The notes below the pieces were generated by a model that did no database searches, was not told the origin of the DNA, and saw only the letters and a program-made list of their open reading frames with translations. A stretch of 63,551 nucleotides of DNA, filler included, from Collodictyon triciliatum (lineage: Eukaryota), in the NCBI GenBank assembly GCA_043381765.1. It is 13 parts of 13 records of this genome, joined end to end, with 100 filler letters (N's around TTAATTAATTAA, not from the genome) between each part and the next. Parts side by side here need not be neighbours in the genome. Positions count along the whole stretch, not along the records: positions 1 to 4,800 come from JBHJMP010005746.1; 12 more parts are not named here. One strand, written 5' to 3'. Both the position numbers and the translations under genes were made by a program. Of this stretch, positions 1 to 61,621 are shown piece by piece (the stretch's first letter is position 1; every line of letters begins with the position of its first letter).

Positions 1-119
1 GTGAGAGAGTGAGAGAGTGAGAGAGTGAGAGAGTGAGAGAGTGAGTGAGTGAGTGAGTGAGTGAGTGAGTGAGTGAGTGAGTGAGTGAGTGAGTGAGTGG
101 GTGGGTGGGTGGGTGGGTG
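1..119. repeat. Compound microsatellite (GTGAGAGA)n-(GTGA)n-(GTGG)n
   Basis: Directly visible tandem units. Confidence 0.95.
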
Positions 120-146
120 AACGTAGAAAAGGTGAAAGAAGGATTT

Positions 147-3100
147 TTAGATATGATTTGAAGCACCATTATCATTAAATTTTTTCATCCTTTTTTCATT
201 TTTTAGTCCTTCCAATTTTTTCCCGGCTTTTTGAACAAGCGATGAGTTCAAAACAATTTCAATGATATAGTGTGAATAACCGTATATCATATCAAAGAGA
301 TAAATGATAAATTCCGGTCCTGCTTTCATCAAGGAGAATATAGCTATCATTAAATTGAAAAATACTATCAATGTGAAAAGGACAATATCATATTCATAAG
401 TAAATTCTACGTATCGAAATAGCAAACTGGCCATTAGTGTAAAATAGAGCACGTACATGGAAAAAATCTGTGATTTATGTAAAACTTTTGACATGAAAGG
501 TACAAAGTAATTTGATGATTCGATGCTTAGTGTCAATATCCAAAGACCAAAGTAAATTTGTAACGCGGGAGAAAAGAAGGAACTGATAACGACAATAAGT
601 AACTTTTGCATCATAGTCACGATTTCCCAATAATAGCATTTCTCCGTATAGCCATCAACCAGAAACCTTAGCAAATTATAAGTTTTGGATTTGGAGTTAA
701 CTAAGTCTGCCCTTTTATAAAACATGTATCCACCAAGAATTAAAGGTCCGCCAAAACAATACATAATGACATAGGCTAGAGAAATGCTTTTCCATGTGAA
801 ATAAACTGTATCGTTGCAACTAATTGACATGTCAGCTCTCAAGTAACTTTCATCACCCAGCTCTTCACAACCAAAGATACTCGATATTGTTGAAGTGATG
901 GTTGGATGGACAAAGAACAACATGACCAGTATTGAGTACGTAAATTCTTCTTTCAATTTTGAAAAAGAAACATCAGCTTTTTTCATTTGATTTGTGTATA
1001 ATTTCCATAGGATTTTGATGAAAATTATTAAAAGCAATACTAAAACTAAAGCGAGTGGCGTTATCATCGATACTAGAATTTTTTCATATATTGGTATTTC
1101 GAACTGGCATTCCATCGTATAACTGTCTATTGAGAGTGAAAATGAAAAAAAGGCTGGAATTTTCATTACCGATATTAAATCAGAGCTCCAATTAACGTCC
1201 AAGTTGCCCAAATAAGACAAAATCTGAAAATGAGTCGCAAGAGTCTTGAGAATTTGAATACCATCTGTTTTTGGTTTCCTCGATTGTTCCACTGTGTAAA
1301 TAATAAACATAAGTGGAAGAATGGTGCTTAAAAAGACCAAAAATCCATTTAACCTTTTTGAAGCACATTTCATGCAAAAGTATTGGCCTGTTTTTCCATA
1401 TCCTTTTTCACAAACGCCACACAAAACTCCTTTGTACCCTTCTGCACAAGTGTTGTTTCCTCCGGTGCAAGCTTCTTCGTTGAGACATTCATATGCGATG
1501 TAGACTCCATTGGAGCTTGGAGCTTGCCAGTATCCTGGTTCAACGTTAAGGTGACTGCTTCCATCACAAACAAATCCATTAGGACAGTCTTTGCACTGTC
1601 TAGAGCTTGATTCTAAATAAGTTGAACGAAGACACAAACAGTCGTTTATAGTTGTCGACCCCAATTTATCTCCATTCCAACCACTCCCACATGATATGCA
1701 TTCTTTTTGACCAGTTGAAGGGTTGTATGTTCCGGCTGTGCATAAAAGACAAGATTCTTGACCAGGTGATGGGTTGTATGTTCCCGCTGGACATGAAAGA
1801 CAAGCAGATTGACCGGGTAATGCATTGTATGTACCAGCTACACATGAGATACATGAATCAATACTGGTAGAACCGTTTGACGGATTGTATGTTCCAGATG
1901 CACATGAGAGACATTCACTTTGACCAGTGAATGGGTTGTAAGTTCCGGGTGCACATGAAAGACAAGCAGCTTGCTTTGAAGAGCCAGTCGATGGATTGTA
2001 AGTTCCAGCTGCACATGAAAGACAAGCAGCTTGCTTTGAAGAGCCAGTCGATGGATTGTAAGTTCCAGCTGCACATGAAAGACAAGCAGATTGACCGGGT
2101 AATGGATTGTATGTACCAGCCACACATGAGATACATGAATCAATACTTGTAGAGCGATTTAATGGATTGTATGTTCCAGCTGCACATGAAAGACATTCAC
2201 TTTGACCAGTGGATGGGTTGTAAGTTCCAGCTGCACATGAAAGACATTCACTTTGACCAGTGGATGGATTGTAAGTTCCAGCTGCACATGAAAGACATTC
2301 ACTTTGACCAGTGGATGGGTTGTAAGTTCCGGCTGCACATGAAAGACATTCACTTTGACCAGCATATGGATTGTACGTACCAGAAGGGCATAATTGACAA
2401 GAATTTGATGCTGAGTCATAAAACTGACCAGCAACACAAGGTCCCCAAATTTTAATTGTCATATCACTACTTCCAGAAACAATTTTTGAGTTATCAGGAG
2501 TAACAGCAACACTTAAAACCCAATTAGTATGGTCAATCAATGTGCGAACCAAAGCTCCATCAGAAAGATTCCAGATTTTGATTGCATTATCCCAACTCCC
2601 AGAAACAATATTTGAGCCATCGGGAGCAACAGCAACAACAAAAATTTCATTAGCATGACCAGTCAATGTGCGAACCAAAGCTCCATCAGAAAAATTCCAG
2701 ATTTTGATTGTACTATCAGAGCCTCCAGAAATAATATTTGAGCCATCAGGTGTAACAGCGACACTGCGAACATGGCCGGTATGAGCAGTAAATGTGCGAA
2801 TCAAAGCTCCATCAGAAAGATTCCAAATTTTGATAGTAGATTCGCCGCTTCCAGAGACAATATTTGAACTATCGAGAGTAACAGCAACACTGTTTACATG
2901 GCTACTATGACCTGTCAGTGTGCGAATCAAAGCTCCATCAGAAAGATTCCAGATTTTGATTGTATTGTCAGCGCTTCCAGAGACAATTTTTGAGCCATCA
3001 GGAGTAGCAACGACACTATTAAGCCATTCAGTATGACCAGTCAATGTGCGAATCAAAGCCCCATCAAAAAGATTCCAGATTTTGATTGTATTGTCAGCGC

Positions 3101-3416
3101 TTCCAGAGATAAAATTTGAGCCATCAGGAGTGACTGTAACACTGCGAACATGGTTACTATGACCATTTATTGTATGAATCAAAGTTCCATCAGAAAGATT
3201 CCAAACTTTGATTGTATTGTCATTGCTCCCAGAAACAATTTTTAATCCATCAGGAGAAACCGCAACACTGTGAACCCAATTAGTATGACCAGTAAGTGTG
3301 CGAATCAAACTATCCTGCTCTTCAGCGAGTCCCAATCCGCAGTGTAATACCAAACCTAAAAAAATGTCAATTTTTAAGTCTATGAATCACGGAGCAAATA
3401 CTCAAAATAATTAACA

Positions 3417-3512
<96 letters not shown>

Positions 3513-3565
3513 TAATGAATACCCAATAGCAACACGGCTACTAATGAGTTTGAATTCAATCTCAT
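147..3565 (-). CDS. Signal peptide + 7 WD40 repeats + Cys-rich (GCC2/GCC3, ephrin-receptor-like) repeats + multi-pass TM domain; 2 exons (3523-3565, 147-3355)
   Basis: ATG at 3565 and a GT..AG phase-1 intron at 3356-3522 give MRLNSNSLVAVLLLGLVLHCGLGLA (hydrophobic signal peptide). Then seven 42-aa GH...SGSxDxTIKIW repeats, CxxCxAGTYN repeats, and at least 7 hydrophobic helices in the C-terminal ~400 aa. Confidence 0.9.
1690..2440 (-). repeat. Coding tandem repeats of 51 and 60 bp (CLSCAAGTYNPSTGQSE / CLSCAAGTYNPSTGSSKQAA)
   Basis: Near-identical nucleotide units inside the receptor ORF. Confidence 0.9.
3417..3511. repeat. (AAT)n microsatellite inside intron 1 of the WD40 receptor gene
   Basis: Directly visible. 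Confidence 0.95.
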
Positions 3566-4737
3566 TCTATTAATGCGATGTGTGTTTAAATTTTGAAGTA
3601 CAATTTTTCTTTATAATCAATAAGATACTTTTTTTAATTTGATATTGGATGTTAAACTCGATTTTAATTGATTGGTTAAGAAATGCATTGGGAAGAATCA
3701 ACAGCAAAGTTTGAATCCAAATTTCATAAAAATTCAATATGAAGGTACTCTTATCCATAAAAATTGATCAAAGATTTACTATTTTATTTTATAACTTAGC
3801 GACAGGCTCAATTTATTCATTAAATTTTACAAAATTGCAACATCGCCTTTAATACAAAATGAATCGGGATATTTTTTAAGATTTTCTGATGAATATAAAA
3901 TAACAAAATAGTTCAATGTTTCAACATATATGTTTATTGATATATTTATTAATAAATAATTCTAATTATATTGAATCTTTTAATTAATATTTTAAAAAGG
4001 GCGTTTTTATCAAAAGTATTATATTTTGATTTGTGAATGGTACAAAAGTCTTAATAAATCGGTAAATCCTGTTTTTTAGTTATAATATATAATTTTAAGA
4101 CAGATGAAGAAAAAAAGACAAATTAAAAATGAAGCTCATGCAAATAAATCCCTATCACGAATAAATAAATGAATAAATAAATGAATATAAAAATAATGGT
4201 ACATAATTTGAGCTGAATTTTAAGAAGATTCTAATTGTTTGAGTTTAAGACCGAAATTATTTATTCTATAATTATCAATCAAAATAGCTGATGATCACAG
4301 CGAACCATTGTCTCAATTAATAGTATTCACTTTTAAATCAAAACATTATATCATAAAATATATATTAATATTATTTTCATTCTTCCTTTCAATAAAATAT
4401 ATTAATAAAATAATAAGAATTTGGTATATCATTAATTATTTACGCAATTTCAACAGTATTCGATTTTATCAAATCTATATACTATAGACACGTATCATTA
4501 AATTAAGTCTTATTCATATTTTGAATAAAACATATTATCAAGGATAATAATATTTCAATATTTTACTTTCATATTTATCAAATTTTACATGTAATGAAAT
4601 TTTTAGATGAAAATCATTAAAAGACAGTAAATTAGATCGGGCATTTTATGTATAGGCTTCCTAATATACAAAACGTCTCTTTATAATTGTAATGTTGGTT
4701 AATGCTCATAATAGATCAAACATTAAAACAGACCATT

Positions 4738-4740
<3 letters not shown>

Positions 4741-4797
<57 letters not shown>
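4741..4797. repeat. (CA)n microsatellite at segment end
   Basis: Directly visible. Confidence 0.95.
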
Positions 4798-4799
<2 letters not shown>

Positions 4800-4800
4800 A

Positions 4801-4900
4801 NNNNNNNNNNNNNNNNNNNNNNNNNNNNNNNNNNNNNNNNNNNNTTAATTAATTAANNNNNNNNNNNNNNNNNNNNNNNNNNNNNNNNNNNNNNNNNNNN
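4801..4900. other. Artificial contig linker N44-TTAATTAATTAA-N44 (first of 12; the others start at 9700, 14592, 19486, 24380, 29279, 34171, 39060, 43949, 48883, 53771, 58666)
   Basis: Identical 100-nt spacer with a six-frame stop palindrome recurring about every 4.9 kb. Flanking segments are about 4.79-4.83 kb, consistent with a size-sorted concatenation. Confidence 0.98.
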
Positions 4901-9658: not shown

Positions 9659-10006
9659 CTAAAGCACTTCTGTTTGCGGGGGGGGGGGGGGGGGGGGGGN
9701 NNNNNNNNNNNNNNNNNNNNNNNNNNNNNNNNNNNNNNNNNNNTTAATTAATTAANNNNNNNNNNNNNNNNNNNNNNNNNNNNNNNNNNNNNNNNNNNNC
9801 TTTTTTTTTACTTTTGTAATTTTGTAATTTTGTAATTTTGTAATTTTGTAATTTTGTAATTTTGTAATTTTGTAATTTTGTAATTTTGCTCTTTATTATT
9901 ATTATTCTTTTTTTTTTTTTTTTTTTTGACAACAGCGTGTTACTAAGGCTACAGCGAAATCTTACACTAAATACACGCATATAAAAGTGGACTTCGTTAC
10001 CAATAC

Positions 10007-14331: not shown

Positions 14332-15029
14332 TGAGATAGACAGAGTATGAAGTTAAAGTAAAAACAAATGCTAAAGTAAAAATAAAAGCAAGAAGCTGAA
14401 TCGTAAATGGTAATAGTTGGTTTTCGTTGTTTGAATAGTTTCTTCTTATGTGTGTATCCTTTAACTGTGTGTTTCGTTTCAGATTTTCGTACTTTTGCGA
14501 CTTGAATTTTTTTGTTTTTTTTATCTTTTTGTTCTTTTTTTTTTTGTTTTTTTTGTTTTTTTGTTTTTTTTTTTTTTTTTTTTTTTTTTTTNNNNNNNNN
14601 NNNNNNNNNNNNNNNNNNNNNNNNNNNNNNNNNNNTTAATTAATTAANNNNNNNNNNNNNNNNNNNNNNNNNNNNNNNNNNNNNNNNNNNNCAGATCCTG
14701 GGAGCCCAAATCGTAACCTTGACAGCGGCTTTGAATACGCTTCCCCCCAAGTAATTGGAGCCGCGATGGATAGTCCCTCTAATTATCTAGAAGAAATACT
14801 CAGTGGTGAGCTTTGGCTTTTTTTTATTTACAAAACGATTTGACGTCCTCCAGGTTTGAATGCCCAAACGCATTTGTAGAGCTTCTACTCATGAAAGATT
14901 TTCATGGATTACAGTTTCTGTCCCAAGCATGATTCCAAGAGATGGCATCCAGCATATACTGTCTTCTCCAAACTCTGAGCAGCCAGAATCACGTAAGATT
15001 GACGAAAATGGTCACTATCTCAAAGCGTT

Positions 15030-35521: not shown

Positions 35522-38416
35522 TGTTCATGAGCTCTATTATCAATGAAATCACGGAAGCGCGAGCAGTCATGGATGAAGAGTTTCTTGTCTATATGAAGGA
35601 TATGACAAGCCATATCTTAGGACAATTCTCTGCGCATCCATTGGTTTATATTATCAATTGACTTATCATATCGCTCAGTATTTTTTCTCTTCCTCTCGAG
35701 TAATTATGGTAGCTTAGCAAAAGTAAATATAACCATTCAACATACTCATATATTCACATTTAGGACAATAGTATTTTATGTACTCATCGTCCCTAATTAT
35801 CCACTTATGAACAAGCCATCCCACAAACATCTTGTTCCGATCGTGTATCCTACTCTTGTGGAGTATTTTGATAAGATACGTAACGTGATAAAGGTATTTC
35901 ACTTTATTTCTCACTCTTTTTCCGTCGTGTTCAGTTTAGTCCACATATTTGGAGGTCAGCCTTTTGTTAAAAAAATATAAAAAAATCATTTGACGGAAAA
36001 TAGGAAGAATTAAGCACAAGAAGACAGCAAGACTCAAAGCTGAATCATCAACTCGTCTATTTAATTTGTGAGGAGCATGAAAATATACTTCGGCACGAAC
36101 TTCAAACGGTATACACATACTCTAAATAAATTTAAAGAAGGTATTTTTCTTCTTACCTTCTCACATAAGACCACATAGCATACCAGCAAACGCTCATTCC
36201 AGCGTCAAGTCTATGACGATAAACTTGAAAATATACGAAAAGCAGCCCGAGTAGAATTACAGGCCTGTTTATTAAAGCAGGAATCCATATTTCGTGAGAC
36301 CTGGAAAGTAGCTGCCTCTTTCAGTTTTTTTCAGTGTTTACATACCCCTCATCACTTTTTTTCTTTTTGGTTGCACCTGTTTATTTCACAACTCAATATT
36401 TACATGTAATATTATTATGATGTAGTTGGCTTTTCAAGAGCACGAACAAGATTTGGTGAATCTTATCGAACGGCATCGTTCACAGATCGAGGAATTAAAC
36501 AAGAGACATAAATCAGAACTCAAGGAACTAGAAAATGAAATTGCAAAGTATTTTTTGCGGCAGCAAAATTTGCTTATCGAAATTCAGGATTTAAAATCTT
36601 ACCGTGAGGTAAAAGTTAATCTGCTAAATTTGATAATATTTATTTATTCTATATACCTAAAATAAATAAATAAATATCATTTGAAGTCGACATTACGAAT
36701 TCTTAATGGTCTTTATATTTGTATAAGATGAAGAATGTATATGATGTTGGTCATAATTCTTTTTTTTAATATATATTGTTTAAGCATATTACCCTTTTCT
36801 TTCTCTTCAACGCTTTAAATATATGTGTTAATATAAGGAATATACAAATATCTAATACGTATCACAGAAACTGATCCAGAAAGAGGCAGAGCATAAAGAA
36901 GCCCTTCTCCAAAAAGAAAACCAAAAGCAAGACCTCAGAAAAATCATAGCGAAACTCGACGATGAGGTTGGAACTCTGCTTATTTTCCATAAAGCTACCA
37001 CCTGTAAATCAATAGTACAATCATATTTCTTTCCTTAAAAAAAATTGCTAGATTTAGATAAGNNNNNNNNNNNNNNNNNNNNNNNNNNNNNNNNNNNNNN
37101 NNNNNNNNNNNNNNNNNNNNNNNNNNNNNNNNNNNNNNNNNNNNNNNNNNNNNNNNNNNNNNNNNNNNNNNNNNNNNNNNNNNNNNNNNNNNNNNNNNNN
37201 NNNNNNNNNNNNNNNNNNNNNNNNNNNNNNNNNNNNNNNNNNNNNNNNNNNNNNNNNNNNNNNNNNNNNNNNNNNNNNNNNNNNNNNNNNNNNNNNNNNN
37301 NNNNNNNNNNNNNNNNNNNNNNNNNNNNNNNNNNNNNNNNNNNNNNNNNNNNNNNNNNNNNNNNNNNNNNNNNNNNNNNNNNNNNNNNNNNNNNNNNNNN
37401 NNNNNNNNNNNNNNNNNNNNNNNNNNNNNNNNNNNNNNNNNNNNNNNNNNNNNNNNNNNNNNNNNNNNNNNNNNNNNNNNNNNNNNNNNNNNAAAAATCA
37501 ATTAATCTAGGCTACAAGAAAAATTTAAGGAGAGAGAGGAAAAATGCAAGTTTATTTGCCACCTTTTTTTTTCTCTTACCCCTTTTAATTATAGTATTCG
37601 GATAATTAATTCACGAATAATTAAGTAAAGAAAAAGCAGTGTATATGTATTGGAATTTTTGCGCTACAATGACATATTATTTCCCAAGTATCAATCACCG
37701 CATCGGAAGCCTGACTAATTAAAATTGGCTTGCTAGTAATTGAGCTTACCGAATCCTTGAAAGCGGCGGCCAAGTATACATCATCTCTTGAGAATGAAAT
37801 CAAGCGGCTTATGTCTGATGAGTCACAAGCAAGAACTCAATCCCAGCAGAATCCGTCCAAGCCTCTCCCTACTCAAGCCGCCAGCTCGCAACCCATCCGA
37901 CTCGACCATATTCTCCTTCAGCCACCGCAATTCGAGCCAGCGCATGACATCGACATATCTGATGCACAGGCACTGGAAAACTTGCAGCAAACATCGTTAC
38001 CGCCCCTCTATCCCATGTCCACATCCGCAGAAAACATCATTCATTTGACAAATCTCGCTGGACATCCCCACAGCGCCCCAGCTTCGCAGGCCGGCCTATC
38101 TGGCCCTCGCAGTGGTCCGACTATCCCTACTTTGCCTCTTGCAACTGAGCATCGTGCAAGCCCTCGTGTCAGCAGACTCTCCACCCCAAAGTCGTCAGCC
38201 TTGCTTCCTCACAACTCCGCCCCGCCGGAGGCCCCAGTATTCAATGCAGCCTATGGAATCCCCACTGGATACGTCTCGGCTCCATCCACTCGCTCCATCG
38301 TCTATGCCATTGCAAAATCTGCCCCTCAAATCTCCAGGCCGAAGGAACAGCGAGTGCCAGGGTACTCCAGAAAGCCTGCATTCAACCCAAAGTTTCACAC
38401 ACATTATTCTGACTAG
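35522..38416 (+). CDS. Multi-exon coiled-coil protein with P/S-rich C-terminus; start uncertain; spans an assembly gap
   Basis: Exons EELSTRRQQD...ELQT, RQVYDDKLENIRKAAR, LAFQEHEQDL...KSYRE, KLIQKEAEHKE...DDE, then the 37730-38416 terminal ORF. Confidence 0.65.
37063..37492. other. Intra-scaffold assembly gap (Ns, no linker motif)
   Basis: Run of N. Confidence 0.98.
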
Positions 38417-48982: not shown

Positions 48983-49075
48983 ACCCCCACATAAAACCCC
49001 CACATAAAACCCCCACATAAAACCCCCACATAAAACCCCCACATAAAACCCCCACATAAAACCCCTACATAAAAT
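48983..49075. repeat. 13-bp tandem repeat (CCCCCACATAAAA)n
   Basis: Directly visible at segment start. Confidence 0.93.
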
Positions 49076-49097
49076 ACATGAACCCATACATCTCAGC

Positions 49098-50586
49098 ATG
49101 CCGAAGAACAAACAGAAGCAAATGCCTATCCCAGCAACAATAGCGCCAAAGGGCGAATCTTTGGAACTTTTGGAGAAAAGTGGATGCCGCTTCGAGTCAA
49201 AGGATGGGACTCTTATCAATTGTACGCAATTGGTTCTGTCAACCACATATACTCTCGGATGTATCTCTGGATTTTCCTTACTGACAGGCCTTAGGAAACT
49301 TTACGTATGTAACCAACTAAACCAATCCATCTCCGACGCCTTTTGGTGTCTGCACAATCTCAAGGAGCTTCATATAGGGGATAACAACCTTGTTGTAATT
49401 CCAGGCTCCATGTGGTTCTTGGAAGGCCTTCAAGTATTAAGCATAGCAAAGAACCATATCACCATTCTGCCTGATGATATATCACATCTGACGAACTTGA
49501 AGGAAGTACGCGTCAAGGAAAATCTTATATCGTCGGTTCCATCTAATATTTCCACACTGATAAAATTGAAGGAGCTTTATTTGGATAGAAACAAGATAAC
49601 AAGATTGCCTTCAAAAATAAGGTTTCTGACAAATTTGAAAGAACTGAGTCTGTCTGGAAATAAACTCACTAGCTTGCCACAAGATTTGTCATTATTGACC
49701 AATATTAAGCTACTGGATATAAGCGGTAATGGAATATCCCGATTACCGATTTGTTTATCGAAACTGATAAACCTAGAAAGACTAGGGCTCTATGATGTTC
49801 CTGTGAGTATGTCTAAATTAAATGTTATCACATTTACGAGTTTTGATCGTTAATTTAAGCAGAATATCTTTCCAAAATATTGAAAATACATACCCGATGG
49901 ACAAGAATGGTTCAGAACTAATAACTTGGTACATAGATAGAGTCACTTCCCATGTGGATAGCATGTCTTCAAAAGTTTTCATCCATAAGATCAGATTTAG
50001 AGGGGCACGTTCTTATCAAAAGAGCACCAACAACGATATCAAATCTGCCATGCTGGAGAAACTCTTATTTTGAGAGTGTAGAATTATATGATGAAATTCT
50101 TGCTGCTAGTAGCCTTAAAGATGTGTCCTCTTTGACATCATCATGGATTCATATAACATCCTTGGACTTGTCTTCAAATTTTGTAAGCCCTCGTTGATCT
50201 ATCGATGTGTCTATCTCCGAGCTTTTTTTCTTGGAATACAAATCGTAAAATACCATTCGATTCCTTTGACAGATATCATTCCTTCCTGATTCCATGTCAC
50301 GTATCACAAAGCTGGTTTATCTGAACCTCGAAAACAACCAGGCGAGTAAATTAGCTTTGAATTTTGTGAGGGATTGGAGCCTACCTAATACTAACATACT
50401 AAAATTGTCCTAGTTCAAGGCGCTGCCCGACTGTGTGCTTTTTATGAGAGAATTGGAAAGGCTGGACATATCAGGAAACCAGGTAGAATACCGTGTACAT
50501 GTGGAATTTATTTAGGATATATTGGAGCTTTTCTAGCGCTCACTATTTTGTCATAGATTACCACGCTGGAGCTTGACGTTTTTTGA
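49098..50586 (+). CDS. Leucine-rich-repeat protein A; exons 49098-49802, 49937-50182, 50273-50341, 50414-50482, 50557-50586
   Basis: 23-aa LxxLxLxxNxIxxLPxxIxxL repeats; all introns phase 0; one GC donor at 50342. Confidence 0.88.
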
Positions 50587-50870
50587 CAAAAAGATCACTT
50601 CAAAAATTTATGCTAAATAATAAGCACTAGAAATCTAAAATAAACTCTCAAAATAAGGCTGTAAAAGGAGATATTTGATACATTCAATTCTTGTCAGTTA
50701 ATACGATTGCAAAGATGTCAACTGTTAAAGACAAGAGCGATTAATATGATCAAAAAATAAAATTATGAATTTACCATACAAAAAGCTTAAGTCATAGTGA
50801 GTGTATATGACTCCGTTTGTATATTCTTTGCTAAATTACAAACTGATTTAATAGTTACCTTCGTATAAAA

Positions 50871-52829
50871 ATGGGGAATTCTCTACGCAAAAAATCTAGG
50901 CCAGTAGAAACCAACGCGAATGATTTTCTGGAGTTGAAAGAAATCGCCGGAAATGTTTCCCATTCTGGTGGAGATGGCTCTCTTTGTAATTGCATTTCAA
51001 TGAACCTGACAAACCGAAGTCTTGATTTTGTCCCTGTTGGATTATCACACCTGACAAGACTTGAGATCCTGAGCATTGGAATGAATTATATAAGTGTATT
51101 ACCTGATGAAATGATGAATTTGATCAATATTCGTGAAATGGATATTGCATGCAACTCGATAGTTGCTATTACACCAAATATATCGAAGCTCTCTACTCTG
51201 GTAACAATTTACATGTACAGAAACCAAATAATCGAGCTCCCCAGGGAAATGTCACATCTTGATAATCTCACAAGCATCATGATGGGCGACAATCAACTTA
51301 GGATTTTCCCTCCCTCACTTATTTATTTGACAAACTTGTGCTGTATTGATGCTAGTGCAAACAAATTATCATACATTCCACAAGAAATCTCCCTTCTATC
51401 TCGTCTAAAAGAGTTGAAACTAGAAAGAAATAGTATAAGCACAACACCAGACGGCTTATTTGAGTTGACAGAATTAAAAATACTGGCTATTAATAGCAAC
51501 AGAATTTCTTTTATTCCTAACCGAATATCAGCCCTCAATCAACTTACTATTTTAAGTTTATACGACAATAAAGTAAGTTAGATGCGAAGAAGCACATACA
51601 AGTCACGATTGTTTGAAAAATACAGTGTCTTGGTTCAAATAAGTTTAACTTATGTATCTCTTCTTGAGAAATAGATTCAGACATTACCACAAGAAATCAC
51701 ATGTCTCTGCCGCTTGTACTTGTTTCAGATGAAGAGCTATGAGTCAGAGCAGATTAAAAGGGTCCCTAGAGACATAACCACCCTCTCTAGTTGGGACCCT
51801 GTGACTTTTCAATACATCGATTTTTACGACAGAATACACACAAATGAAAAAATCAAAGATGTTTCACAATACCTGCAAGGATGGACAAGACTTTGCTCGC
51901 TGGATTTATCCTACAATTTAGTACAGTGCATTAATTAATTTAATGATCATTTTGGGCTTTAAAATCTTGAAGAAAACTTACAGTTTCGATGCGTAATTAG
52001 ATTTGTGAACTCCCCGCCGATATTTCATGTCTAAGAGTACTAGAAAAATTATGTCTTGAGGGAAACCAGGTGGTCATAGTCTGACTCATTACTCGCATCC
52101 TTTTAAATTCTATGCAATTAGAAAATCTTGTGTCGTCGATGCGATTCTAAATCTCACCAAGCTAATTTCATTCTTTAATTAGCTCACCAGCTTTCCTTTG
52201 AATGTACACCTTATACCTTCACTCACTTACCTTAATGTGTCCCAAAATAAGGTAAAATCAATCAACAACATCGGAAATATACTATATGTAAAAAAAAAAA
52301 AAAATCATTTCACGTTCTGGAAAAAAAAAGATATCGTCAGCCCCTGAACAAATAACACTGCTGGTGAAACTGAAAGAATTAAACGCAGGCAGCATGGAGG
52401 TTGACATTAACCACGAGCTTTCATATGCTTTATCTTTTTTTTTTCAACCATCTTTCTTCTATTTGGGTGGGCATAGAGTAATTATGAGAGATATCACATA
52501 ACAGCACTCATCACGCTCTGAATTTTTCCTTCATTGCAGTGGCGCACAATCCCTTCTCAGATTTTTTCAATGACCTGGATTGAAAGCTTGGATATAAGCC
52601 ATAACATGGTTTTAACCTGAATTGTTTGAGCCACGACATTATTTTTTTTTTGTTAAATTGAAGCAGATAAACGAATATTTGTGATTTCACTATTAGTTTA
52701 TCACGCGCAAGACAGTATATCTTCATTTATATATTGCTAATGTTTCCTGCAAAATGTAGGTATCCTCAATAGAATAACCATCCATTAGCGTTGATAAAGC
52801 AAGAATTCCTCGACCAAAACGCTAAATAA
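50871..52829 (+). CDS. Leucine-rich-repeat protein B (tandem paralogue of A); exons 50871-51572, 51675-51920, 52001-52069, 52183-52251, 52331-52399, 52540-52608; last exon uncertain (52773-52829)
   Basis: 23-aa LRRs; exon 2 is 246 nt as in gene A, followed by four 69-nt phase-0 exons. Confidence 0.88.
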
Positions 52830-52879
52830 ATTCCTTCGTTATTAAAAAGCGATACAACTGCCCATGACTAAAAAAAATA

Positions 52880-53075
52880 ATAATAAAAATAACTAAAATA
52901 AAATAACTAAAATAAAATAACTAAAATAAAATAACTAAAATAAAATAACTAAAATAAAATAACTAAAATAAAATAACTAAAATAAGATAACTAAAATAAA
53001 ATAACTAAAATAAAATAACTAAAATAAAATAACTAAAATAAAATAACTAAAATAAAACAACTAAAATAAAATAAA
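52880..53075. repeat. 15-bp tandem repeat (AAAATAAAATAACTA)n
   Basis: Directly visible. Confidence 0.93.
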
Positions 53076-53427
53076 ATAGAAAAATAAAAATTAAGCTTTT
53101 GTTCGAATCAGAATGCAAATTAGAGTACTACCCAAATGGTTCATTCCTGAAGCATGTCAATATTTGTTGCATGCATGCTCTACCAAATAATATTCCTTCT
53201 TTCTGTTACACCAAAAGGTCGGACTATCCCATCAACGTTCAAAAGGCGCAAGGAATTCTCGAAGAGATGCGTCAATCTAATTTTTTTTTTAACTAATATG
53301 ATAAAGTCCCTATCTCGATTTCGAAAAGCCAAGAGCACGCCATGAGAGAATAAATATTTTCACTTTAATTTGAAGAATGAAAGGCAGAGAATACGAAGAA
53401 ACATGCAGAGCAAAGACGATGGGATAT

Positions 53428-53574
53428 TCATTGTTCCTTGTTTTGTTTGCTGGGCAAGGAATTATCCTGGCCATCTTGCGCATTGGGCCCTGTTGGTTTC
53501 GGTGGCTGCACCGCTGTCGTGATTCCACCCTGAATCTGCATTTGTAAAACTTCCTCATACTGCTGTCGAAGTAT
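53428..53574 (-). CDS. Probable terminal exon of an unknown gene cut by the linker
   Basis: ttgcag acceptor, then ILRQQYEEVLQMQIQGGITTAVQPPKPTGPNAQDGQDNSLPSKQNKEQ*. Confidence 0.4.
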   Translation of the reverse strand: MLRQQYEEVLQMQIQGGITTAVQPPKPTGPNAQDGQDNSLPSKQNKEQ

Positions 53575-54260
53575 CTGCAAAAGCGATTACACATCAGCAC
53601 GTTTATGATAATCATGAATAGAGAAAATCAATAAAAAGTTTATGCTAAAGTCCAAATGTTAAAGAGATGTTTTAAAACCGATACCCCTTAATTGAAAAGA
53701 AAAGAAAAGAAAAAAGAAAAGAAAAAAAGAAAAGAAAAAAAGAAAAGAAAAAAAGAAAAGAAAAAAAGAANNNNNNNNNNNNNNNNNNNNNNNNNNNNNN
53801 NNNNNNNNNNNNNNTTAATTAATTAANNNNNNNNNNNNNNNNNNNNNNNNNNNNNNNNNNNNNNNNNNNNTTGTTTTGTTCTTCATTCCTTCCAAAAAAT
53901 AAAAAAAATAAAATAAAGTATTTAAGCAGTGGCGCATAACAAATATTGGAATGGATCCCTTCAGCCTGATTTACTCTGTCACAACTTGAAAAGCTTGCTT
54001 TGCTCTTGGCAAGAGTTTTATGCGCACGAGAAACCCTCTCGGTAGCTGCATGAAGAGAAACGAAAAAGAAATATATAATGAAAAAGAACAACAACAAAAA
54101 AGCGAAAAACGAAAAATGAAGAAAAGAACAAGAAAAGAACAAGAAAAAATCAATAAGAAAAAAAAAATAAAACAACCACTCAAGTAAACTCAAAGCATCT
54201 TGTTCACAACAACGCAGGAGAGAAAGAAAGATAAAGAAGAGATAATTAAGGCGGGAAGGA

Positions 54261-59680: not shown

Positions 59681-61621
59681 TCATCTTTTGATGTACCCTA
59701 GTCTGGAGTTTTCTGTAATAAACAAAATGCGGTTGTGATTTTTGTGATAGCTCCATAGAAAACGAATGAAGAAAATGCTGGACGAAATGGTGGACGATGT
59801 CAGTGATATTTTTGCAGAGGCCACTTCGATGTCTCCAATTCGAAGGAATCTTTCGTGCTCAAACGTCTTCCCAATATTGAGCTTGCACAGTATAGTCACC
59901 GCAAAGCACCACATAATCCCCATTATTGCGATGTACGATATCCTTCTGTGGTTGATGTGAAAGGTATCCATCATGAGAAACCAGATCAAAGCACATGCCA
60001 CAAAGAACCAGTAAACCATACCGTAGCTCCATTGACACAGAATCCCAGAAGACAGGAAGAGGTTAAAGACGAGAAACATAAGAAACCAAAAGTCAAAAGA
60101 ACGTATCATGTAATGGAACATGAAGAAATTGCATGTTATTGTTATTTGTATTATGATGTAGAGGGTGGCAGAGGTAATTACTGCCAGGCCAAAGTTTTCA
60201 CCAGCCTTTCCTATGGGTATTCCAGATGCGAGTGGCAACGATATTGCTGTAGATATGACATTGATAATGATGCCAAAGATGTTGTAATACTTTGATCTGA
60301 GTAGACGCGATGTGACAGGGTATTTCTTCTTTAAGATAGTATGAAAGAATGTTTGGTGAAGGTCATACTCGAGTGTGCTGCTTTCTATAACGCCCATGGC
60401 CATGCACCTTTGCGGATCAACAACTGCAAGTTGGGAATCAGAATAGGCCTTCTTTGGCTTTTCGCTTAACTGATTATTGCAGTGGATATTGGTATCTGGG
60501 TCGTTCCCTCTGATGCAACGAATGCTTTGATTTTTCTCTGCTTGCATTTCTACATCTTGACTTTGGCTGGCACAATTGTTGGGTCTGTGTTTTGAATCGT
60601 TGAAAGAAGTATGATACTTCCCTCCATTATATACACTTTCTTCGCCCAGAGCTATCCGGTAAAAGTTTGAGATGAAAGTAATCGTATCGGGCTTCTTTAA
60701 AATTATGTGTGTGTAAAGAATTCGAAAGAGGTACAGTATCATAGTTGCCGAGTTATCTATCGCCTGAAGCCTAAAGTCAGTCAGCAGTGTCGTCTCTTTA
60801 TAGTAAAGCCTCTCGTTTTGAAAGTCTACCAGGCGGAATATCAATATGGTGGCCATAGGGAAGTAAGACAACACCCCGTTTACAACAGCCAGTCTCATTA
60901 ACACATGCTTCTTTCCTGCATGAGCGTCAAAGAATATCAACAACATGAAGCTAGATAGCGAATGCATAGATGAGGTAAAGATTTCGTCTGTAAATCCCCA
61001 CAATATGGCCAAGCAAATGTGAAACGACACAAGATGCCAGATGGTAAACCAAAAGTTGAAGGTTTTTGAAAGCTCCTTCACAATGTCCACACGGATAAAT
61101 ACACTGTGGTGGAGACAGAAACTGATGGAGTAGAATATCTGGTAAGGCATAAAGTATCTCATCGGAATAAGGCTCTGGTGGTAGCAGCATGAAAATGAGA
61201 CTACAGTTCCGAAAAACCAAAGAACGGTGATGGCCCATGAGACTGTTTTGTTTTTTACCCACACCAGAACCTTTTTCTGTGCTGCTTCGTTTCTGATTAG
61301 CAAGGTAAAGAGTGTCTTGTTTTTGTCAACTATTTTTACATCTCTCTGAATGGTGAGCTTCACGACGGACGACCGCGTTTTCTCCTTGTTCAACCCTGGG
61401 CCATGTTGGTCATCGCCGTGTGACGACTCCGGCAAGCACTCTTGATCATCGACTGCATCTCTTTGCTTTTCATCACTTTCGCTCGCTTTCTTTGGTTGTT
61501 CATCATCATTCAGCTGCTTATCTGCGCTGGCACTTCCTGGGTCGATGTGCACCCAGGCGTCTCTTGTCTTGAGTGGCACAATCCCAAGAAGCTCCTCGCC
61601 CTGGAGCTCTTTGCCTTTCAT
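59681..61621 (-). CDS. Intronless 646-aa multi-pass membrane protein made of two homologous halves (about 6 TM each), unknown function
   Basis: Paired motifs KELSKTFNFWF/HYMIRSFDFWF, LIFFDAH/FLMMDTFH, ILYLFRILYTH...TITFISN/IFFIRFLWSYH...RILFITEN. Confidence 0.88.
   Translation of the reverse strand: MKGKELQGEELLGIVPLKTRDAWVHIDPGSASADKQLNDDEQPKKASESDEKQRDAVDDQECLPESSHGDDQHGPGLNKEKTRSSVVKLTIQRDVKIVDKNKTLFTLLIRNEAAQKKVLVWVKNKTVSWAITVLWFFGTVVSFSCCYHQSLIPMRYFMPYQIFYSISFCLHHSVFIRVDIVKELSKTFNFWFTIWHLVSFHICLAILWGFTDEIFTSSMHSLSSFMLLIFFDAHAGKKHVLMRLAVVNGVLSYFPMATILIFRLVDFQNERLYYKETTLLTDFRLQAIDNSATMILYLFRILYTHIILKKPDTITFISNFYRIALGEESVYNGGKYHTSFNDSKHRPNNCASQSQDVEMQAEKNQSIRCIRGNDPDTNIHCNNQLSEKPKKAYSDSQLAVVDPQRCMAMGVIESSTLEYDLHQTFFHTILKKKYPVTSRLLRSKYYNIFGIIINVISTAISLPLASGIPIGKAGENFGLAVITSATLYIIIQITITCNFFMFHYMIRSFDFWFLMFLVFNLFLSSGILCQWSYGMVYWFFVACALIWFLMMDTFHINHRRISYIAIMGIMWCFAVTILCKLNIGKTFEHERFLRIGDIEVASAKISLTSSTISSSIFFIRFLWSYHKNHNRILFITENSRLGYIKR

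Follow-up and report, generated by a model that had tools for sequence, protein, structure and literature searches.

A WD40-headed variant of the CRMP-like, nine-helix, head-swapping membrane proteins in Collodictyon triciliatum

Our analysis concerns a gene on the minus strand of the first contig (positions 1-4800) of a 63,551-nucleotide stretch from the protist Collodictyon triciliatum, to which we refer as the window. The gene is a WD40-headed variant of the poorly characterised CRMP-like, DUF7630-containing, nine-helix, head-swapping proteins, and its combination of domains has one uncharacterised precedent, in Tetrahymena. It encodes a signal-sequence-like N-terminus, a seven-bladed WD40 propeller, a cysteine-rich stalk, a DUF7630 module, a core for which nine membrane helices are modelled, and a lysine-rich tail. 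As a whole, the product is best read as a type-I-like multi-pass membrane glycoprotein that acts as a sensor, and we favour this reading with moderate confidence.

The head of the protein (2415..3323, minus strand) consists of a closing strand and seven repeats, each of exactly 42 amino acids. It matches the Pfam WD40 model PF00400 in seven stretches (E 1.1e-73, 241 bits against a cut-off of 27). The seven units contain no insertions or deletions, the DNA is recognised by TRF as a 126-bp tandem array at 2445-3309, and the pairwise identity between blades is 45-74%, with a mean of 62%. The AF2 model of the head, made with an alignment of 19 homologues, predicts 28 strands at a pLDDT of about 98, and the first propeller strand is formed in this model by residues 17-20 of the open reading frame (ORF), directly after the predicted cleavage site. 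When the model was submitted to Foldseek, it matched the seven-bladed design 7big (TM 0.97, root-mean-square deviation 0.7) and WDR5 (TM about 0.9), and the other matches included the prokaryotic structure 5yzv and 2ymu from Nostoc. As modelled, the head would thus be a closed seven-bladed propeller with four strands per blade, in which the closing strand is delivered by the other end of the array.

The relatives of this head were sought by a whole-length protein search, in which 8000 candidates of 587-1869 amino acids were scored and the best 120 were listed. The best relatives among the matches listed are WD40 arrays carried on NACHT, TIR, caspase, AAA or kinase domains; identity of the head reaches at most 57% to cyanobacterial and other bacterial arrays and at most about 48% to fungal ones. 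Judged by its repeats, the head belongs with the self-similar WD40 arrays that occur chiefly in the STAND/NLR sensors of bacteria and fungi, of which the fungal HET-E-type proteins are presumably examples. Because of the length window and the limited candidate set, the affinity to STAND-type arrays should be taken as a lead and not as a phylogeny. The columns which vary from blade to blade are repeat positions 5-7, 9, 19, 25 and 27, and the differences concentrate just after the GH dipeptide (5-7 and 9) and on both sides of the Asp of the GS-x-D-x-T turn (25 and 27). In the alignment of the 19 homologous arrays, these columns likewise lack conservation. We take the corresponding loops to be the top face of a WD40 propeller and the positions to be those that are hypervariable and used for recognition in fungal HET-E-type genes. 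The G+C content at third codon positions (GC3) is low throughout, namely 0.26 in the WD40 part, 0.22 in the stalk and 0.34 in the membrane part. Therefore, the head is neither a foreign insert nor a contaminant, it is a long-resident part of the gene. Additionally, an N-x-S sequon follows the Trp in five of the seven blades, compared with 52 of 1419 such sites (3.7%) in 119 homologues, which is suggestive of glycosylation. The seven blades contain no cysteine, as do 18 of the 119 homologous arrays.

The propeller is followed by a stalk of the Ephrin_rec_like / GCC2_GCC3 type (1491..2414, minus strand), in which we count 13 CxxC..GTYNP units of about 17-20 amino acids, one degenerate unit and degenerate Cys-rich modules. 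Model PF07699 (Ephrin_rec_like) matches it in eight stretches, both in the scan that also finds WD40 (E 1.8e-46) and in a scan of 761 amino acids (E 3.2e-48, 161.7 bits against a cut-off of 23.1), and at the DNA level TRF reports a 51-bp tandem array at 1707-2383. Between the stalk and the membrane lies an EGF-like Cys module, DUF7630 (1365..1490, minus strand), which adjoins the first membrane helix. Its match to PF24633 is marginal: a scan restricted to the C-terminal 449 amino acids gave 28.3 bits, just over the cut-off of 27, and the longer scan of 761 amino acids gave 26.4 bits, which is under it. The same module was matched in 13 of 31 relatives of the core. Stalk and DUF7630 together contain 40 cysteines with regular CxxC spacing.

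The membrane core (309..1358, minus strand) shows at least seven membrane segments by hydropathy. The AF2 model of the C-terminal 449 amino acids, made with 30 relatives, has nine long helices (pLDDT 88.6, pTM 0.85), with the N-terminus predicted outside and the C-terminus inside. In the core alignment (A1) residues C210, C227 and W290 are invariant, and the two cysteines are modelled in a beta-hairpin that links helix 4 to helix 5 and would be outside in the N-out arrangement. The basic loops and the Lys-rich cytoplasmic tail (150..308, minus strand; residues 419-442 of the 449-residue model are helical) would fall inside on the same N-out, C-in path of nine helices. Chains of G-protein-coupled receptors come up only among the weak matches of this nine-helix model, in Foldseek with E-values of at least 0.27 at a TM of about 0.15 and in VIA with Z-scores of 4.2-4.5; the search of PDB sequences with the core profile returned no match below E 0.04. 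The original prediction, which had been made from the sequence before these searches, claimed seven WD40 repeats, a CxxC-GTYN stalk and at least seven membrane helices. All three are borne out, the repeats by the seven PF00400 stretches, the 42-residue register and the 28 modelled strands, the stalk by the PF07699 match together with the counted GTYN units, and the helices by hydropathy, to which the AlphaFold model adds a count of nine.

The second half of a putative signal sequence is encoded at 3324..3355 (minus strand), where small residues in a G-x-A arrangement are followed by an acidic mature N-terminus. The highest hydropathy in a 19-residue frame is 2.31, at residues 7-25 of the spliced product. 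The first ten residues of exon 2 are hydrophobic, with small residues at -3 and -1, after which come acidic residues and the strand that closes the propeller; in the head model residues 1-15 are predicted to be disordered (pLDDT below 50). As the start of exon 2 runs from the end of the signal straight into the closing strand, no extra upstream domain is missing. Hydropathy reveals no hydrophobic segment between propeller and stalk, and in all proteins studied so far Cys-rich modules of this kind (the TNFR/ephrin-receptor-like class) lie on the exoplasmic side, with their cysteines joined in disulfides. Therefore, the propeller should share the side of the stalk, and this argument does not rest solely on the small first exon. 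With the signal-peptide-like N-terminus in front and no membrane segment in between, the WD40 head and the stalk would both be exoplasmic, and we infer an N-out topology for the protein. Relatives of the core carry plainly extracellular heads in the corresponding position. Exoplasmic here covers both the cell surface and the lumenal side of secretory compartments, and the two are not distinguished by these arguments. The notion that a WD40 module of the cytosolic type had been recruited as an extracellular head is consequently upheld in one half: a canonical GH..WD propeller is placed on the exoplasmic side, while the ligand-binding role assigned to it is pure conjecture.

The two-exon protist gene is real. 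Its minus-strand ORF (147..3353) comprises 1068 amino acids in a single uninterrupted frame over both repeat arrays and the core. The first in-frame ATG of this ORF does not occur before the seventh WD repeat, an in-frame stop lies eight codons upstream, and read-through of the intron from exon 1 meets a stop after 17 codons; therefore, an upstream exon is required. The proposed exon 1 (3523..3565, minus strand) has 43 nucleotides and encodes the start Met (ATG at 3565), a single Arg and half of the hydrophobic signal sequence, the other half of which lies in exon 2. It would be separated by an intron of 167 nucleotides (3356..3522, minus strand; GT donor at 3522, AG acceptor at 3357-3356 preceded by a T7 tract) from exon 2 (147..3355, minus strand), which carries the remaining codons in 3.2 kb, down to the TAA stop at 149-147. 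Most of the intron is an (ATT)n microsatellite, recorded by TRF as (AAT)35 at 3406-3512. The join of 3523 to 3355 preserves the frame and gives a product of 1083 amino acids. The G+C content is about 37% in exon 1 and 33-44% in the coding parts, compared with 10% in the intron and 23% in the 1.2 kb upstream. Altogether 15 single upstream exons would be in phase; none of the others lies as close as the proposed one, and the N-termini that they would give are all far less hydrophobic. A small first exon missed by the ORF track had been predicted here, and the GT..AG borders, the phase, the hydrophobic N-terminus and the comparison of the 15 candidates speak for this splice, which is deduced from the genomic sequence. 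In one lake-water metatranscriptome run, the only RNA run found with the gene and one that contains 0.06 of the sampled sequence words, two contigs of 151 nucleotides are 100% identical to the gene, at 1186-1336 and 1394-1544. These contigs attest that the organism and this gene are present in an RNA library and do not bear on the junction. At the other end of the gene, a (GTGA)30-type microsatellite at 1-120 (CACT/CTCA on the gene strand) begins 27 nucleotides past the stop and reaches the end of the contig, hence the 3' untranslated and terminator region of the gene is truncated or filled by the repeat.

The family to which the core belongs was surveyed by an exhaustive HMMER scan with DUF7630 and the core part as the query, in which cluster representatives were counted. 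At E<=1e-3 the count was 6643 representatives, of which 1724 remain at 1e-10 and 56 at 1e-30, and the core is situated C-terminally in family proteins of up to 6588 amino acids. Named members come from Rigifila, Mantamonas, Fabomonas, Rhabdomonas, Rhodelphis, Thecamonas, Diplonema, Stylonychia, Tribonema, Ectocarpus, the starfish Acanthaster, Anaeramoeba and Tetrahymena. Cnidarians, green algae, haptophytes and giant viruses are represented in addition among the atlas neighbours, some of which bear the name 'TRP C-terminal domain'. The heads were surveyed in the best 150 of the 6643 representatives, and 36 of these, with lengths of 800-2200 amino acids, were scanned for domains: Ephrin_rec_like was found in 22, TIG in 18, RCC1 in 7, LRR in 3, FG-GAP and PQQ in 2 each and Kelch in 1. 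The stalk, DUF7630 and the nine-helix core therefore constitute a large, old, pan-eukaryotic and head-swapping family, in which beta-propeller heads of other classes are common. RCC1 is usually regarded as an intracellular domain. As it serves as a head in 7 of the 36 relatives, the WD40 head is part of a wider display of 'cytosolic' propellers on this anchor. Two smaller searches contributed little: a word-based protein search with the core gave 6 matches, and a metagenome search with the single protein gave two loci with a 34-residue match (E 4e-4) and no WD40 or stalk nearby, which is uninformative. The literature search on DUF7630, PF24633, DUF8003 and PF26010 found no paper. In the atlas, the commonest recorded phylum of the cluster that combines Ephrin_rec_like with a TRP-like core is Nucleocytoviricota, with the phylum known for 4 members, which hints that giant viruses carry members of the core family.

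Within this family the WD40 head is rare, at least among the best 150 relatives: the WD40 region of the Collodictyon protein was matched in none of them. No full-length orthologue was found among the 8000 scored candidates either, as the best 120 whole-length matches cover 22-35% of the query and comprise 119 proteins that match the WD40 part only and one that matches the stalk only. The combination is nevertheless not unique, because a search of longer proteins with the core profile found a protein from Tetrahymena thermophila (XP_001024939.2 / I7MAJ1, 2997 amino acids, annotated as 'WD domain, G-beta repeat protein') in which WD40 and core are joined. Its residues 2328-2803 align with the core profile over 428 columns (hhalign probability 99.9, E 3.2e-37), and WD40-type matches are located at 164-314, 910-1061 and 1370-1511, where only PF00400 passes its threshold (30.4 bits against 27) and other propeller models remain under their cut-offs. 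After a hydrophobic, Cys-rich N-terminus this protein has no hydrophobic segment until residue 2442. Thus, it shares with the Collodictyon protein a DUF7630-like module, the same core, WD40-type regions on the N-terminal side, which would be exoplasmic, and the lack of a hydrophobic segment between them; it differs in being three times longer, in having several divergent WD-like regions and in having no GTYN stalk array. Comparison of its WD regions with our protein by phmmer gave no match at E<=0.01, therefore the two heads may be independent recruitments. The literature search for the accessions of the Tetrahymena protein found no citing paper, and neither of the two papers found with the phrase 'extracellular WD40' deals with a protist protein. 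The premise of the original prediction, that GCC2/GCC3-stalk multi-pass anchors carry exchangeable heads, is correct, as the domain scan of the 36 relatives confirms. The further proposal of a new cell-surface receptor class has to be abandoned in view of the 6643 representatives of the core, the CRMP-like architecture, the other propeller heads and the WD40 precedent in Tetrahymena.

If the favoured reading is followed, a mechanism can be outlined. A cleavable (or anchoring) signal sequence would bring the N-terminus into the lumen of the endoplasmic reticulum (ER), the propeller and the disulfide-rich stalk would reach the exoplasmic face, the nine-helix core would span the membrane and the Lys-rich tail would remain in the cytosol. 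The variable face of the propeller could then bind an external macromolecule, the rigid stalk could relay the occupancy of the head to the core, and the core could signal inward, by analogy with the CRMP exocytosis sensors or with the Ca2+-permeable proteins of the Pkd2 type. The protein is probably a ligand sensor; the step in which the core passes on the occupancy of the head is proposed only tentatively, as something that may or may not take place. The gene, its domains, its place in the family and the exchange of heads are established. Ligand binding, signalling and localisation are things that we purely infer, and a role in the recognition of prey, kin or pathogens is equally conjectural. 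A bolder version would be that a hypervariable WD40 array of the NLR/STAND type was moved outside and wired to a CRMP/Pkd2-like core, in such a way that the cytosolic non-self scaffold of fungi and bacteria is used at the surface of a protist, where the binding of prey, kin or pathogen gates Ca2+ entry or triggers exocytosis or phagocytosis, and the N-glycan sites on the opposite rim of the blades are an adaptation to the secretory pathway. We consider this version rather improbable.

Several observations weigh against reading the protein as an exoplasmic sensor. The five sequons are not independent events, because the blades are copies of one another. The absence of cysteines was considered as an adaptation of the propeller to export and this idea was rejected, since 18 of the 119 homologous arrays are equally Cys-free. 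A crude hydropathy test for signal sequences does not discriminate, as it is positive in 42 of 108 family members and in 30 of 110 cytosolic STAND WD40 proteins. No RNA covering 3356-3565 and no joint across the intron was seen in the single lake-water metatranscriptome, the two contigs from this RNA library could represent carry-over of DNA, and the donor GTATTC matches GTRAGT, the usual consensus of splice donors, only weakly. Concerning the core, a convincing solved relative was not found by Foldseek (best E 0.036, TM 0.13), and the best VIA score (Z 7.5, to Hrd1) is within the noise of helical bundles. PF06011 (TRP-like), the family of which we take S. pombe Pkd2 to be a member, gave no match in our protein at E<=0.1, nor in a second scan at E<=0.01, and is matched only in a minority of its relatives, namely in 6 of 31 core relatives (best E 2.6e-14) and in 1 of 36 in the second relative set.

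These points leave room for three other explanations. One would argue that the protein is an adhesin or a component of a structural surface coat, whose head and stalk bind substrate, prey or neighbour cells and whose core is a mere sturdy anchor. Family members are indeed often giant (up to 6588 amino acids) and bear TIG, LRR, FG-GAP and beta-helix/PMP repeats typical of adhesins, and the source names of relatives include 'cell surface receptor IPT/TIG' and 's-layer protein-like'. However, a core of 400 amino acids which is conserved over the eukaryotic supergroups and in which Cys, Trp and other residues are invariant exceeds the needs of an anchor, and the CRMPs, which have a like architecture, act in the triggering of exocytosis (PMC9670195). 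Thus it is not likely that the protein serves for adhesion only. Alternatively, the protein could reside inside the cell, in the ER, the Golgi, a lysosome or a secretory vesicle, with a lumenal head and a core that is a transporter or channel similar to Flc/Pkd2. The topology argument, as it yields 'exoplasmic' and not 'cell surface', is compatible with this, as is the PF06011 match in the six relatives mentioned above, and CRMPs are observed mostly on vesicles within the cell, with only a short stay at the plasma membrane (PMC9670195), while S. pombe Pkd2 is reported also from the ER (PMC11333956). Nevertheless, a long rigid stalk with a variable binding head is more typical of outward display, no retention motif was found, although no search aimed at one was made, and we regard an internal residence as distinctly unlikely.

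The third explanation is an artefact or a dead gene: the signal exon could be a chance ORF, a gene for a cytosolic WD40 protein and one for a stalk and anchor could have been fused wrongly in the contig, or we could be dealing with an unexpressed pseudogene. The missing RNA over the junction, the 14 further in-phase upstream exons that are formally possible and the nature of the contig, which is 4.8 kb long, flanked by microsatellites and rich in tandem repeats, would be in agreement with such an explanation. On the other hand, an unbroken frame of 1068 codons covers both arrays and the core, all domains share a low GC3, and the 5' end of the ORF already encodes the hydrophobic and cleavage part of the signal followed by the closing strand of the propeller. 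Additionally, the identical sequence is present in an independent RNA library and a Tetrahymena protein has the same domain combination, so that an artefact appears very improbable. The sensor on the exoplasmic side remains our preferred reading of the gene.

In eukaryotes, propellers of the canonical GH..WD kind are regarded as scaffolds of the cell interior. The gene described here and XP_001024939.2 present a clean case in which a canonical WD40 propeller has to fold and work in the secretory pathway, carried by a disulfide-rich stalk. They also draw attention to a very large pan-eukaryotic family, composed of a head-swapping stalk, DUF7630 and a nine-helix core, that has no solved structure. 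If the homology to CRMPs is true, then the CRMP exocytosis sensors of parasites are its only studied members in the accessible literature. And if the core is a Pkd2-like channel or a CRMP-like trigger, the heads (WD40, RCC1, Kelch, FG-GAP, LRR, TIG) would form a catalogue of what the surfaces of free-living protists can sense.

The rest of the window comes from other contigs. It contains 12 linkers of the form N44-TTAATTAATTAA-N44 (a six-frame stop spacer), found at 4801-4900, 9700-9799, 14592-14691 and so on every ~4.9 kb, which join pieces of about 4.8 kb that end in microsatellites or homopolymers. As these are separate contigs joined by linkers, genes on different pieces are not neighbours and only positions 1-4800 are physically linked. 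The other contigs of the 63.5-kb window hold no further copy of any of the parts, be it head, stalk or core. A separate gap of 430 N is situated at 37063-37492. On the contig 48983-53770 two plus-strand ORFs, 49098-49853 and 50871-51581, match LRR_8 (E 6.7e-36 and 5.6e-20) and may be exons of one LRR receptor-like gene. The plus-strand ORF 25563-27290 begins with the C-terminal part of a RhoGAP domain (E 9.3e-11), which implies an upstream exon. Two long ORFs, 15030-18395 (plus strand, 1121 amino acids) and 59681-61621 (minus strand, 646 amino acids), have no Pfam match at E<=1e-3; the former lies in a stretch of strong AT skew (0.33) and may be of low complexity.

Among the known systems, the CRMPs (TgCRMPa/b, PfCRMP1-4 and TtCRMP1/2) appear to be the closest in layout. 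These proteins have a signal peptide, a variable head, ephrin-receptor/EGF-like Cys repeats, nine predicted membrane helices and a cytosolic tail, and the N-terminus of TgCRMPa was shown to be exoplasmic (PMC9670195, PMC9815656). They are needed for the discharge of rhoptries in Toxoplasma and for the normal discharge of mucocysts in Tetrahymena, and their authors propose that an outside cue is sensed and exocytosis is triggered; homologues with a similar nine-helix core were noted in Dictyostelium (PMC9670195, PMC9815656). With the CRMPs, the Collodictyon protein has in common a signal sequence, ephrin-receptor/EGF-like modules, a membrane-adjacent EGF-like module and a multi-pass core. The core has nine predicted helices in both, and the likeness is one of architecture and not of sequence comparison. 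The heads are different: those described for CRMPs are lectin, Kringle or MAR domains, whereas our protein has a WD40 propeller.

A comparable arrangement is known from the fungal TRP-like proteins of the Pkd2/Flc group. In S. pombe, Pkd2 is built from a signal peptide, an N-terminal domain on the outside, a nine-helix membrane domain of about 400 amino acids and a cytosolic tail (bioRxiv 10.1101/2022.08.11.503631), and a stretch-activated permeability to Ca2+ is reported for it (PMC9727806). The Collodictyon protein would follow the same succession of parts. The fungal members have a small lipid-binding Ig-like head without a Cys-rich stalk or a propeller. The order of propeller and Cys-rich domain also has an analogue, namely in the plant receptor kinases of the CRINKLY4 type. 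The ectodomain of CRINKLY4 (ACR4) begins with a seven-bladed propeller, which is followed by a TNFR-like Cys-rich domain; each blade of this BLIP-II/RCC1-like propeller holds one disulfide, and its N-terminal strand is buried (bioRxiv 10.1101/2020.08.10.245050). We considered an ectodomain of this type for our protein and rejected it: CRINKLY4 is a single-pass protein with a kinase, whereas our protein has Cys-free GH..WD blades and a nine-helix anchor, and no kinase domain was found in the Pfam scans.

The blades themselves can be compared with the STAND/NLR WD40 arrays, for which 2ymu from Nostoc can serve as an example. The repeat pattern and the variable positions are as in our head when the consensus of the 19 proteins is considered. 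However, these arrays are the C-terminal sensors of cytosolic NTPases, while the array of the Collodictyon protein stands at the N-terminus, behind a signal sequence, and leads into a stalk that would be on the outside.

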